From positions 109,352-173,351 of IMG/VR virus record IMGVR_UViG_3300037225_000932: DNA of 64,000 nucleotides; one strand, given 5' to 3'. This document shows positions 16,365 to 54,628 of this stretch, piece by piece. How positions within the stretch are numbered: position 1 is the stretch's first letter; each line of letters starts with the position of its first letter. The DNA comes from a virus. The notes below the pieces were generated by a model. It had not been told where the DNA came from. It searched no databases and was given only the letters and a program-made list of their open reading frames with translations. A program made the position numbers and the translations under genes.

Positions 16365-16772
16365 TTACCAATTGCTACTATTTTCAACAAACTCTTTCGC
16401 TTCAATTAAACTAAGATTTGTCCAATAACGAAGAACCTTAATGGCCTCAACTTGAACTTGTCGATTTTGGTTTCGTAAACTACAAATTGACTGAAAAGCC
16501 TTCAAGGGAATATTATACCAAGTATTTTGAGAAATAACCGTAACAACCGGAACCCCATCCTTTATACTCACATTATGACCATGAAAAACAGTAGGAACTT
16601 CATTCCGTTTCTTCTCTTCAGCAAGCTTCTCCTGTAAATCATTACTTAAAGCCTTAATCTCTTCCTGATAAGCCTCTTCAAGAATTCTTAAAGCAGTTTT
16701 CTTATACTTATTCTCAAGAACACTTGAAACAATAACAACACGACACATTTCTTTCTTGTTCTCAATATCCAT
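16365..16772 (-). CDS. protein with ribosomal L7/L12 C-terminal-like domain
   Basis: VEAIKVLRYWTNLSLIEAKEFVE matches the L7/L12 CTD helix pattern. Confidence 0.6.
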   Translation of the reverse strand: MDIENKKEMCRVVIVSSVLENKYKKTALRILEEAYQEEIKALSNDLQEKLAEEKKRNEVPTVFHGHNVSIKDGVPVVTVISQNTWYNIPLKAFQSICSLRNQNRQVQVEAIKVLRYWTNLSLIEAKEFVENSSNW

Positions 16773-50420: not shown

Positions 50421-51681
50421 TGCTTTTTTCTTTCATATCTAAAAGAATAGCAAGACAATTAATGTCTTGATATTCTTCTGTGTCTTTAATTTCTGCTAAT
50501 TTTTTACAAAAAAGTACTACAGCAGGAAGACCCCACATTCTTAATTGAGCAGCAACCTTAATACGATTACCATTTAACCAACTTTCAATAAGAACATCAA
50601 GCTTTTTATCGAAAACTTCTTTAGTCGCTTTGGTAAAATTGTAATCCATTTTATTATCCTTTGAGGAAATTAGAACTTAAAATAAAAAATCAGGGTAATA
50701 TTACTCGTCTATTTCAAAAATATTCTTTCCTTTAGGAGTTTCGCTTGCCTTATCTACCCTTTTTAATCGCCAAATAATTTCTTCACTATTAGCATAGTTC
50801 AATAATTCCCAGCTAATAATTAAAACTAAAAATCCTGTAGTCACGTTTCCCTGAAAAATAGAAATAATTCCTATAACAAGCGTAATTAGTCCCAGAAGTC
50901 TATCAAAAACAACATAACACATTTTAATCTCCTTAGTAATAAAAAACCCAATATTCTCCATCTTGCTCAGGACCCCAACCATATCTTAATAGAAGGTCTT
51001 TATCAGAACTTCTTACTTCAAACCCTGATCTCTCAGATATATGAACTTCTAAATAACATCGTGAAGGATGATCTGGTGTTCCATTGGGAAAAGAATTAGG
51101 AACATAGTCAATAGAAAGTTCATCTTCGTATTTAGAGAGAATAGTTAGACCAAAATAAACTTTAGTAAAAGTATCCATAATTATTCGTCCTTATCAAAAA
51201 GATCTATTAACTGGATCGTGTTCAATAGATTTTTATGGTTGAACCATATCTAAACTAAGAAACTTATGATCGGCACCTTGAGGTTTTACTTCTTCTCCCA
51301 TTTCATCTTCATAGCTGATAGTATTTCCGGCAATAAAATCCTGTCGAACAAATTTGCCAATTTCAGTATCAAAATCTTGAATAACAAAGCCAAGAATAAT
51401 CTTCTTAACGATCATTAGATATCTCCAGTTATTTCTATTATAACTTAAAAGAAAAAATCAGGGAAAAAGAATTACTTTTTATTCATTTTTTTTGCAATAT
51501 CTTCAATTTCAGCGAGACACATTAAAACGCTGCCAAGAATAAGAAAAAGCAATCCATTAGAAACTTGTCCTTTAAGGGCGAGAATAAATCCAAAAACATT
51601 AGAACATAAACCTAAAATCATTGTTGGCATTTTATTTTTCCTTTTATTTTTGCGCTAAAAATTAAAGTAATGACATTTCTT

Positions 51682-51870
51682 CAAATTCGCCTACCGTATT
51701 CATGAGCTACCAATAAAATAAATCTTATTAGATTACTGACTCAACGAGATTACTTGCTCTCACACCATTGATCCTTTTTAAGAGATCAATAATGTGAGTA
51801 GTAGAGGTATTTCTCTCCTCAGTCTTTAATTCCCTGCGTTCCACAGGTATTTTCTTACTATTTAATCCTT
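51682..51870 (-). ncRNA. TnpB omega-RNA scaffold (ending ..GTAGCTCAT at 51702) plus ~20-nt guide 51701-51682
   Basis: Overlaps the tnpB 3' end; terminal hairpin CTAATAAGAT/ATTTTATTGG then TAGCTCAT, resembling an IS605/IS607 right end; 5' limit approximate. Confidence 0.65.
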
Positions 51871-53081
51871 CTAATTCTATATTTTTAGCAGCGTGAATAT
51901 CACGATCTTCTTTATATCCACACTTACACTCATAAACTCTATCTTTTAGTTCTAATTTGTTTTTAATACCACACTTAGGACACAATTGAGTAGAAGGAAA
52001 AAATTTGTTTACTTCGATTGGTGTATGAGATTTATTTTTAAGATTTCTGATAATTCCACCAAGACTTGTGTTTTGAATTTTCTTTCCGTGATTTACTTTC
52101 CAAGCATTCAAGCTTTCATCTTGAAAACAAATATACTTAAAGTTATTAGTTAAAACATTTACTATTTTGTTTCTTATGTCTTTCTTTTTATTATTTAGTT
52201 TTAAGTATTCTTTTTCTCTTTTTAGTTTATCTTTGAATTTATTATTAGATTTCTTTCGATTTTTCTTCATTATTTTTCTATCTAATCGTTTTAATTTTTT
52301 AGAAACAGGTATTTGGTATTCTATTTTTATACCATTAGAAAGAGTAAGTTGAGTAGAACAACCAAAATCTATACCAATAGATTTATCAGGAATTGTCTTT
52401 TCTATTTTATCTCTAAATGTAGTGATATAAAGATAAAAGTCACCACACTTTTTAACTAAAGTAGCATTTGCTAATTCTATATTTTTAGGTATTTGAGATA
52501 ATCCTGATACTTTTAATTTTTGTAAGATACCTTGTATTTTTACTCTTGAGGTATTAAAATCAATCTTATAAGTTATATTTGCCTGTTTTAGAGGAATAGA
52601 ATGTAGAAAACTCTTAAACTTTAGTTTACCTGTTTTTTTCCCTTTTTTCTTTAGTGAACTTAAGACTTTTATGCTTAAAAATACTTTAGCTTTAAGAGAT
52701 TGTTTCATTTGAGAAGAAAGAGCGTTTAACGTTCTATTTTCAAACTTATCAAGAACTTTGACTGGAACTGTTTTTACTTTTGTATCAAGCGTGCTAAGGT
52801 CGTCTGAAGATAAACAAAAATTATAGAAATATCTTGCTTCTTTGAATAATGTATTTAATTTATTTAATGATGTTTTAGAAAGTTTAGATTTAATAATTTT
52901 AAGTTCATAAGACTTACATTTTTGAGTAGAATGTCGTAGTTGCGTTTCGCGTTTTGTGAGTAGTCTATCATTCATTCTAATATATTTACTAAGTAAAAAG
53001 AAGATATCCTTTATTATTTTAAGAAAAATATAATAAAATAATTAAAACAATAACATTTCCTGGAAACATGAGACCGTATTC
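51702..53081 (-). mobile_element. 1380-bp TnpB-only element inserted in the deaminase gene 3' end
   Basis: Gapless diverged duplication 51661-51701 vs 53041-53081; TTTAC immediately 5' of the left junction; no tnpA in the window. Confidence 0.8.
51728..52975 (-). CDS. tnpB: TnpB RNA-guided endonuclease
   Basis: RuvC-I IGIDFG, RuvC-II variant CFQDE, Zn ribbon CPKCG..CKCG, RuvC-III DRDIHAAKNI. Confidence 0.92.
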   Translation of the reverse strand: MNDRLLTKRETQLRHSTQKCKSYELKIIKSKLSKTSLNKLNTLFKEARYFYNFCLSSDDLSTLDTKVKTVPVKVLDKFENRTLNALSSQMKQSLKAKVFLSIKVLSSLKKKGKKTGKLKFKSFLHSIPLKQANITYKIDFNTSRVKIQGILQKLKVSGLSQIPKNIELANATLVKKCGDFYLYITTFRDKIEKTIPDKSIGIDFGCSTQLTLSNGIKIEYQIPVSKKLKRLDRKIMKKNRKKSNNKFKDKLKREKEYLKLNNKKKDIRNKIVNVLTNNFKYICFQDESLNAWKVNHGKKIQNTSLGGIIRNLKNKSHTPIEVNKFFPSTQLCPKCGIKNKLELKDRVYECKCGYKEDRDIHAAKNIELEGLNSKKIPVERRELKTEERNTSTTHIIDLLKRINGVRASNLVESVI

Positions 53082-53452
53082 GTAAACCATACCTCTCTAA
53101 TACCTATGCTTCGCAACCATTTTTGACACAGAATACACGGCATAGATATTCTAATCTCTCCAAAACGATTTAACCGGACATTCACTAAAAAACAATCCTT
53201 AAAACTAATATTTCTATCTTTACAGCGATAAATAGCAGACAACTCAGAATGAATACTATCAAAACGATATCCATTTCTCTTAGCTTGAGGATGAGTTTTG
53301 TGATATTCGTTCCAGCCAACACTAATAATTCTATTTTTCATCATCAAAAAAGAAAAATGAATATTACGAGCATCAGGAACACCAATCAGTTCTTGGCTAA
53401 TATTCAAAACCTTATTTTGAAGTTTAAGAGATATCATTTTAATTACCAACAA
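53042..53452 (-). CDS. CMP/dCMP-type Zn deaminase
   Basis: SIHSELSAI and SMPCILCQ motifs. Confidence 0.8.
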   Translation of the reverse strand: MLVIKMISLKLQNKVLNISQELIGVPDARNIHFSFLMMKNRIISVGWNEYHKTHPQAKRNGYRFDSIHSELSAIYRCKDRNISFKDCFLVNVRLNRFGEIRISMPCILCQKWLRSIGIREVWFTNTVSCFQEMLLF

Positions 53453-54169
53453 ATATCAATTAAAATCTCATCAACACCGGTAATGTCAAATTTCTGTTCT
53501 ATAAACCAAACATCGAACTCAAGACCATAATCTTTAATAAACTTTTCCAGGGTGCCTTTATAGTTATTTGTTTTTACTTGGTCTTTCCAATAATCTTTTA
53601 TTGCTTTCATTCCTTCTTTGTAGGCAGAAACAGTAAACTCAGTTGAAACTTTAAGCAAACAATCATTATGAAAACCGCACCATTCACTTATTACATTCAT
53701 AATACTTTTAGGAAGTTTTATGTATTCAAGAATAAGACAATTTGCTTTTCTAAACATTTTGTTCCTCTTTTGTTTCTTCGTCTTCTCTTTTATCTAATTC
53801 TTTAATGTTTTTATCTAACTTCTTTAATAAACTAATAACTCCCTTATAATCACCAGGTTTCCAGTCGATAAGATCAATTTTAATATCACTATTCATTCCG
53901 TTTGCACTATTTTGAGTAATTCTTAAACCATAATGAAAATTAGCAACAGGAGTTTTTTCATCCCAATCATATTCTGTCGCCTTATGTGTCCAAGCAACAA
54001 TACTAAAACTTAATTGCCCACCTTCAACGGTCTCTAATATAATTTCTTTTGACATTATTGTTCTCCAATAATACTTTATATCTTTAATATATTTTTTCAG
54101 GGCGAAAATAAAAAACCGCCTATTTATTTCTAAATAAGCGGTCCTCACGACCAACCTAACTCTCTCTTA

Positions 54170-54628
54170 TTATAGATATTTTTTGACCTTTTCCCAGTAT
54201 TTTTGTGCATTTTTTGTTGCTTGCTCAGATTGCGTTCCCATTTTTGGACCAGCATTGTGGATACGACTAACAGCTTCCCAATTCTTTTCTTTAATGTATT
54301 TACTCGCATATCTGTTCATATATGCTTTAACTACTTTTAACGAATACTCATAATTATTACAATCAGAATACTTTCCTCCAATACTCCGATCATATTCTAA
54401 AGCATCTTTCCAATATTCTTTGTGAATTTGAAACGGCCCAATAGCAAGTGAACTATCTCCGGGTTTTACGCCAGAAGTTTTTCCACCGGACTCAACCAGG
54501 TGAATAGCGTGAAGACAATCATCATAGGTTTTTGTTTCACTACTAAATGCCGGTTTGACAACATAAAACAAAATTACAAAAAAGACAAAGAGAATAACAA
54601 CCTGCTTTAATGCCGTCTTCATCTTCAT
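54170..54628 (-). CDS. i-type (destabilase-like) lysozyme with N-terminal signal/TM
   Basis: CLHAIHLVESGG, GPFQIHKEYWKDA, YMNRY, RIHNAGP. Confidence 0.75.
   Translation of the reverse strand: MKMKTALKQVVILFVFFVILFYVVKPAFSSETKTYDDCLHAIHLVESGGKTSGVKPGDSSLAIGPFQIHKEYWKDALEYDRSIGGKYSDCNNYEYSLKVVKAYMNRYASKYIKEKNWEAVSRIHNAGPKMGTQSEQATKNAQKYWEKVKKYL

Follow-up and report, generated by a model that had tools for sequence, protein, structure and literature searches.

A TnpB cassette without tnpA in a peat phage deaminase gene, probably an RNA-guided homing element that carries its own rescue tail

The 64,000-nucleotide stretch analyzed here (the window) is the last 64 kb (positions 109,352 to 173,351) of the 173,351-bp IMG/VR record IMGVR_UViG_3300037225_000932, which has an estimated completeness of 88% and represents a phage that is found repeatedly in peat metagenomes of several studies. 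On its minus strand, a CMP/dCMP-type zinc deaminase gene contains, 13 codons before its end, a 1380-bp insert (53081..51702) with a tnpB gene, and the last codons of the deaminase are present twice, once on either side of tnpB. We consider it probable that this insert is a homing cassette that is guided by RNA, brings its own rescue tail, and has related phages without the insert as its targets. The comparisons that point to this reading, and those that do not, are laid out below; coordinates of all features are listed in Table 1.

The anatomy of the insert is defined by the two deaminase tails, referred to here as tail A and tail B. The 3' end of the deaminase gene reads ..TGG TTT AC|G AAT ACG GTC TCA TGT TTC CAG GAA ATG TTA TTG TTT TAA, where the bar marks the left boundary; TGGTTTAC leads directly into tail A, which codes for (T)NTVSCFQEMLLF followed by a stop. 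The 3' region of tnpB terminates in ..TTGGTAGCTCAT at 51702, with GGTAGCTCAT as the terminus of the right end (RE), and the very next base opens tail B (GAATACGGTAGGCGAATTTGAAGAAATGTCATTACTTTAA), which in the deaminase frame codes for (T)NTVGEFEEMSLL and a stop. The two tails lie 1380 bp apart and align without gaps at 27 of 40 positions (28 of 41, if the next shared T is counted); positions 1 to 9 are all the same, and positions 10 to 16 are all mismatched (7 of 7). These features had been noted in the first-pass annotation of the window, which was made from the letters alone, and they were borne out by the alignment, as was its claim that the carried tail keeps the host protein whole: the deaminase open reading frame (ORF) 53437..53042, with its start at ATG 53437 as in the 131-aa database copy P0001, reads via TTTAC into tail A and retains its full length. 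Equally, the native-type tail was confirmed to begin at the first base past the RE, directly 3' of it, which is where the guide of the omega-RNA would be templated.

Chance is excluded as the origin of this duplication. With the base composition of the window (match probability 0.279), the binomial probability of at least 28 matches in 40 is 4e-8, or 1.5e-5 after correction for 400 start positions. Against a cross-locus null, in which upstream regions from 57 TnpB loci were combined with flanks belonging to different loci, the highest-scoring segment without gaps reached 13, compared to a 99th percentile of 11 (p=0.002). The cassette is no assembly chimera either, because contigs of independent peat metagenome runs (X2 records 1 and 8, X7 record 28) span both junctions with zero differences. 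A CTCATG within tail A, similar to the RE terminus CTCAT|G, was considered as a possible RE remnant; this idea was dropped, as the similarity is possibly a coincidence.

The protein encoded in the cassette (415 aa) is a TnpB. It matches the Pfam domains PF01385 and PF07282 (OrfB_IS605 and Cas12f1-like TNB) and the ISDra2 TnpB entries 8bf8, 8exa, and 8h1j in PDB (E=7e-13), and has the RuvC-like fold with its D-E-D triad and a zinc ribbon; D203, E287, and D359 are invariant across the relatives in alignment A2. A second tnpB copy (copy 2, locus L002), encoding a protein with 82% amino acid identity, is located 120 kb away in the same phage. Between the two copies, synonymous divergence (dS) is 0.57 and the ratio of nonsynonymous to synonymous divergence (dN/dS) is 0.21. 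Over the scaffold and the last 45 codons, dS falls to 0.09, versus 0.66 upstream, and nucleotide identity of the scaffold to copy 2 is >95%, versus ~82% for the rest of the gene, which is what an overlapping functional RNA predicts. From the last 150 nt before the RE in 41 relatives, three helices are predicted, with compensatory double changes in 16 of their 17 pairs, and GTA..TCAY ends every one of the 41 aligned scaffold sequences. The structured scaffold at the gene 3' end plus RE that is characteristic of OMEGA systems (obligate mobile element-guided activity) is thus predicted here as well, and, judging by these substitution patterns, selection acts on both the nuclease and its RNA scaffold. 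An Rfam search of the locus gave nothing above noise and no family for the scaffold, and a scan for sigma-70-like promoters upstream of tnpB found none.

The RE end at 51702 was fixed by the point at which copy 1, copy 2, and ~60 relatives cease to be alike; the predicted guide position and the putative transposon-adjacent motif (TAM) were placed by comparison with relatives and with an empty site, L099, described below. In ISDra2, ~16 nt past the RE serve as the guide, the cut falls 15 to 21 bp from the TAM, and transposition proceeds without target duplication (PMC8612924). A contig of the peat metagenome run X4 departs from the window at position 51736, in the tnpB 3' region, and goes on into a third variant of the RE, whose terminal hairpin is richer in GC (..GAAACCGCTAAGATTTATTTAGCGGTAGTT..), indicating that a further relative of the window element circulates in the same habitat.

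A complete IS200/IS605 insertion sequence (IS) has TnpA, in cis or elsewhere in the genome, and a subterminal left-end (LE) hairpin directly after the TAM, and neither was found in this case. The Y1 transposase gene tnpA (PF01797) was absent from the 173,351-bp record (estimated as 88% complete) in searches whose controls were positive, in agreement with the earlier claim. Canonical relatives have a 13-nt linker after the TAM and then a conserved hairpin (..GAGTCCGAAAGCCC-stem..), and, as they also have no room for tnpA, the family is tnpB-only. The GAGTCCGAAAGCCC-stem motif has no counterpart at the window locus, where TTTAC is followed by the tail of the gene with its stop codon and then by an AT-rich leader that aligns weakly with copy 2 over only ~55 nt next to the tnpB ATG. 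Having neither tnpA nor LE, the cassette cannot be moved by TnpA, and with no tnpA in the record, TnpA-linked "restorative" homing plays no part here.

TTTAC is found at the left boundary in 9 of the 10 canonical relatives whose RE ends in GGTAGTTCAT, as in the window (L003, L018, L053, L055, L060, L063, L072, L073, and L078), and TTCAC in the tenth, L065; other TnpB subfamilies have GTTAC, GTCAC, or TGAT in this place. Accordingly, the TTTAC of the deaminase gene is the TAM to be expected at the duplication boundary, and we infer by homology, as had been proposed, that it is the TAM of the window element. A scan of the phage genome revealed no TAM-flanked match to either guide elsewhere. The guide of copy 2 (AGAAATGTGTCGTGTT) has a 15/16 match at window position 16752 on the minus strand (genome position 126103), preceded by CAAGAA with no TAM-like motif; with ~0.05 such matches expected per genome, it may be due to chance.

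A survey of TnpB homologs for the duplicated-tail layout, suggested in the first-pass annotation, covered 80 metagenomic and 12 viral loci encoding TnpB relatives at 50 to 62% identity. In each locus, tnpB and the RE end were located, and the 350 nt upstream of tnpB were compared with the post-RE flank. The full layout was detected in 4 of the 57 non-redundant loci, far outside the null: in the window and, among the 56 others, in L020, L008, and L050. In the window, the left boundary is TTTAC and the duplication spans 40 nt. L020 has TTCAC and a 47-nt duplication with three changes (tails ..FELDRKKFDYTIND and FELDRKRFEYTIND); L008 has AGGAT and a duplication of 72 nt, or 24 codons, that is ~65 to 70% identical (tails NPPKPLTGDIIEALEQTWQDISEE and NPPEPLSGDIIEALEDTWEQLNE); L050 has ATGAT and a duplication of ~19 nt (tails RPTYWKNNN and RPNYWKII), each of these tails being closed by a stop codon. 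In all four loci, the host gene lies upstream of tnpB on the same strand, the duplication starts at guide position 1 and ends no more than ~5 nt from the stop codon where the tails align (those of L050 are unequal in length), and the LE hairpin is absent. In L050 (133-1548), the tnpB frame has no stop before the RE and continues across it into the displaced host tail, so that the residues and the stop of that tail (..RPNYWKII) close the frame. A protein search with the L008 host protein gave no allele besides itself, and its distant homologs stop short of the tail.

For one of these sister cassettes, an empty site could be identified. The L020 host protein has a 71%-identical homolog, P0005, on the ENA contig L099, where no tnpB follows the gene. 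Instead, it is directly followed by a minus-strand gene whose product is 56% identical to that of the corresponding L020 neighbor. The ORF immediately downstream in L099 does not match the immediate one of L020 but matches the next, so L020 has one extra small gene. The L099 site reads ..GATGATTTTAC|TTTTGAATTAGATAGAAAAAGATTT.., that is, TTTAC plus 25 of 25 nt of the L020 guide, including position 21, so that the displaced tail is shared with an element-free relative over its first 25 nt. The resident allele of L020 has TTCAC (a synonymous Phe change) and a difference at position 21. The target predicted for this cassette is therefore present in a related genome, and the copy in the carrier itself has a different putative TAM. 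The two host genes are 82% identical in nucleotide sequence overall, with a 30-nt identical run elsewhere, so the 25/25 match is not in itself extraordinary. Nor is loss of recognition through TTCAC assured, because the same motif forms the left boundary of the canonical relative L065; the notion that TTT to TTC is a clean TAM-killing synonymous change was weakened by that observation. In L020 it is the TAM that differs, so immunity through guide mismatch is not general across such cassettes.

On the reading that we favor, the element would be a tnpA-less TnpB/omega-RNA cassette, derived from a tnpB-only IS200/IS605 ancestor, that has lost its LE and gained a host-gene tail. In related phages that infect the same cell, the TnpB-omega-RNA complex would recognize deaminase alleles without the cassette by TTTAC followed by the native tail and cut them 15 to 21 bp from the TAM. 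Recombinational repair templated by the cassette-bearing genome, for which the deaminase body would supply the left homology arm and tail B, together with the downstream gene, the right one, would then copy tail A, tnpB, the scaffold, and the guide into the cut genome. The carrier allele differs from the predicted target at positions 10 to 16, and we propose that the resident allele escapes because all of these guide positions (7 of 16) are mismatched. Because the rescue tail would spare the element the fitness cost of a position within a gene, neither an intron nor an intein would be needed. As to the origin, we can only speculate that an ordinary insertion at TTTAC truncated the deaminase, that the tail was then regained and the LE lost through illegitimate exchange with a diverged allele lacking the cassette, and that products with identical tails were self-targets and were lost, which would be why surviving tail pairs are always diverged or TAM-altered.

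Identity at the first guide positions extends beyond the four loci. In many loci, the first guide nucleotides are repeated directly after the TAM-like left-boundary motif, and perfect blocks of 6 to 9 nt are common. Blocks of at least 6 nt are found in 14 of the 57 loci (null mean 5.6, maximum 12 in 300 cross-locus permutations), of at least 7 nt in 8 (null mean 2.1, never reached), and of at least 8 nt in 4 (p ~0.013). They cluster 100 to 185 nt upstream of the tnpB ATG and are present both in the tail-carrying cassettes and in canonical elements with the LE hairpin (L003, TTTAC|TGAAAC; L006, GTTAC|CGTGAAA; also L013). IS200/IS605 transposition makes no target duplication and so does not explain these blocks, which may be a mechanistic footprint of RNA-guided homing. 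One conceivable route is that the trimmed 3' end of the non-target strand, comprising the TAM and the first target bases, primes on the donor; the identity block would then give later events a fully paired primer end. In L040, TGTTAC appears to be fused straight to the 3' half of an LE hairpin that is complete in L038 (GCAGATGAAAGCC..). GCAGA, at the fusion point, also makes up the first five guide bases of L040, suggesting that this left-end junction was microhomology mediated.

Several observations weigh against homing. The tails differ in 5 of 12 residues, which does not look like designed synonymous recoding; of the "recoded" tail proposed in the first-pass annotation, the homologous substitute stands, whereas the recoding gives way to a diverged tail. 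The mismatches spare the TAM-proximal seed, as positions 1 to 9 are identical, whereas selection for immunity alone would favor the reverse. The full layout is limited to the 4 loci mentioned above, and in L020 the resident allele matches the guide at 20 of 20 positions, relying on TTCAC alone. Finally, the search for insert-free deaminase alleles, also suggested at the outset, came up empty in every collection searched. Comparison by blastn of 51000-54200 with 50,697 phage records gave no match; IMG/VR searches with the deaminase and with the L020 and L008 host proteins returned no relatives; and a search of 5.8 billion proteins with the deaminase found only itself and two distant homologs (P0002 and P0003; 44% and 36% identity). 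Both tails fit the residue pattern of the P0002 and P0003 tails, and these homologs cannot decide which tail is native. Contigs of four peat metagenome runs over 50800-54200 have the cassette at the same site, and none in these runs joins 53082 to 51701; as contigs drop rare variants, this is uninformative with respect to empty alleles.

Some of these observations would be equally at home in a fossil, in which a tnpB-only IS was inserted at TTTAC and later illegitimate recombination restored the tail and deleted the LE, leaving the cassette stranded with no current target or activity. The missing LE motif and tnpA, the failure to find an empty allele anywhere searched, and the amino acid changes between the tails, similar to those between two natural alleles, all fit that history. 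Nevertheless, we regard it as unlikely, if worth keeping in mind: purifying selection on TnpB and the near-zero synonymous change in the scaffold between two old copies argue for a working ribonucleoprotein, and a sister cassette does have naive targets, as shown by L020 and L099. An origin of the fossil type is in any case compatible with a homing function and probably preceded it. The cassette might also serve as an inter-phage weapon that cuts the deaminase 3' end of rivals with no copying involved, the benefit being marker exclusion and the rescue tail keeping the carrier fit. The same anatomy would be expected, homing endonucleases can act by killing competitors at high divergence (PMC13565253), and gene conversion between relatives may be inefficient because of their divergence, the nucleotide identity of the L099 and L020 host genes being 82%. 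What makes this reading rather improbable is that the sequences bordering the cassette on either side are just the homology arms that homing requires and that recurrence of the layout in unrelated host genes is the trace expected of spread by copying, although the two roles are not mutually exclusive.

Since the resident allele combines TTTAC with a 9/9 TAM-proximal match, and identity blocks of 6 to 9 nt occur at other loci too, the complex could conceivably bind its own deaminase 3' end and regulate transcription there, in the manner of the nuclease-dead TldR proteins. This seems very hard to reconcile with an intact RuvC D/E/D triad (known TnpB-derived repressors are nuclease-dead), with the nine base pairs available, which are short for stable R-loop binding, and with a site at the 3' end of a gene rather than at a promoter. 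As the source is a metagenomic assembly, one might even think of an artefact joining two strain variants of the deaminase tail, an idea that can practically be dismissed, given that contigs from several independent runs and studies extend across both junctions with no difference and that the same architecture is seen in other assemblies from different sources (L020 and L098).

The putative homing cassette shares traits with several known systems and is identical to none of them. With TnpB of IS200/IS605 elements (ISDra2 and the tnpB-only IS1341 type), it has in common the protein family, RuvC triad, and zinc ribbon, as well as, by prediction, a scaffold overlapping the gene 3' end and RE, a guide from the post-RE flank, and a TAM at the left boundary (PMC8612924). 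Unlike those elements, it has no tnpA or LE hairpin, cannot transpose, and carries a piece of host coding sequence, and its predicted target is an allele in another genome rather than an excision footprint on the sister chromosome. The closest parallel in layout comes from the mORF elements of fungal mitochondria, in atp6 of Allomyces macrogynus and in atp6, atp9, cox2, and nad3 of Glomus, where the native C-terminal piece has given way to a foreign one brought in together with a LAGLIDADG or GIY-YIG gene (PMC3630166). There, as in the window, the endonuclease gene lies near the 3' end of the host gene, preceded by an in-frame substitute C terminus and followed by the homologous piece pushed downstream, and the divergence of the pieces is comparable (64 to 81% nucleotide identity in the Glomus mORFs [PMC3630166] versus 27/40, or ~68%, in the window). 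However, the nuclease here is TnpB and not a protein-guided LAGLIDADG or GIY-YIG enzyme, the setting is a phage and not a eukaryotic organelle, and the displaced tail is the predicted template of the guide RNA, so that the duplication begins exactly at the RE/guide boundary.

Like the free-standing homing endonucleases SegF, SegG, and MobE of T-even phages (PMC13565253), the cassette is a phage nuclease gene located between conserved genes, with a predicted cut in the neighboring gene of a related phage, and, as proposed here, a carrier copy protected by sequence differences and spread by co-conversion; unlike them, it would use an RNA guide and a TAM for recognition, and, as it sits inside the gene and not beside it, it needs the duplicated tail. 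Engineered home-and-rescue (HomeR) CRISPR gene drives (PMC7968924) similarly direct an RNA-guided nuclease against the 3' part of a needed gene and carry a cleavage-resistant replacement within the drive, whereas the window cassette is natural, haploid, and phage-borne, employs TnpB instead of Cas9, and has a diverged natural allele instead of synonymous recoding as its rescue tail. IStrons, which combine a group I intron with IS605/IS607 TnpB (PMC10690162), are also TnpB elements within genes with a device that spares the host gene, which they restore by RNA splicing and not, as in the window, by a substitute tail at the DNA level; no intron family was found in Rfam at E<=1 over 51400-53300. 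A review of OMEGA homing (September 2026) lists four modes, namely intron homing, intronless homing, and restorative and non-restorative transposon homing, none of which includes a carried piece of a host gene (PMC13565253).

More tentatively, phage TnpB cassettes might constitute a natural class of RNA-guided drives of the home-and-rescue type, each restoring the feature that it interrupts, be it a gene tail (window, L008, L020, and L050) or a terminator hairpin (copy 2). Copy 2 (G000:C1:39179-43459, with tnpB at locus positions 1501-2790) splits an intrinsic-terminator hairpin. When rejoined, its flanks (..AAAAACACTATAT + AGAAAT + GTGTAGTGTTTTTTTT) form a 14-bp stem (-13.5 kcal/mol), and the insert opens with a substitute 12-bp hairpin and T run (-12.1 kcal/mol); AGAAAT is found at both boundaries, and the preceding motif is TATAT, not TTTAC. 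At G000:C1:24096-25213, likewise outside the window, a ~1-kb insert interrupts the anticodon arm of a native tRNA-Gln; it carries an intact tRNA-Gln(ttg), as detected by ARAGORN, and an ORF of 291 aa in which an HNH-like motif is present. By analogy, this HNH cassette can be viewed as following the same "replace what you split" logic with protein-guided recognition.

All genes surrounding the window cassette are on the minus strand. In the order of transcription, they comprise a destabilase-type lysozyme, two small ORFs, the deaminase, tnpB, and further small ORFs, including one for a NADAR-domain protein. A Pfam search with the 52-aa product encoded downstream of tail B gave no family.

Table 1. 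Features of the TnpB cassette and its surroundings (window coordinates)
Feature	Position	Strand	Basis or comment
Destabilase-type lysozyme	54628..54170	minus	
Deaminase body (CMP/dCMP-type zinc), through the TAM	53082..53437	minus	Pfam PF00383, E=3.4e-7; HxE and PCxxC in translation
TTTAC, putative TAM; codons TGG-TTT-ACG	53082..53086	minus	Left boundary of canonical relatives and empty site L099
Tail A, carried substitute: last 12 deaminase codons and stop, in frame with the body	53042..53081	minus	27/40 identity to tail B
AT-rich leader of 66 nt, from deaminase stop to tnpB ATG	52976..53041	minus	No conserved LE motif
tnpB, 415 aa	51728..52975	minus	Pfam OrfB_IS605, Cas12f1-like_TNB; RuvC D203/E287/D359 and zinc ribbon intact
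omega-RNA scaffold (predicted), overlapping tnpB 3' end and RE	51702..51851	minus	Terminus GGTAGCTCAT
Tail B, displaced native-type tail; first 16-20 nt (51701..51682) are the predicted guide	51662..51701	minus	Starts at first base past RE
Downstream gene, 52 aa (proposed right homology arm)	51472..51630	minus	ORF list

A known role of TnpB is to bring its transposon back after excision, and recently it has also been found to spread an IS between copies of a plasmid. Together with its three sister loci, the window cassette points to a fifth mode of homing, in which a TnpB without transposase would reside in a phage gene that is needed, cost-free by virtue of a spare tail predicted to resist cleavage, and use the displaced tail as its guide, a design that parallels the HomeR gene drives and was reached independently by engineers. 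If so, there would be a concrete selective role for many tnpA-less phage tnpB genes and a route for the exchange of short gene segments between phages, in a simple natural system consisting of one protein, one RNA, and two 40-nt targets.

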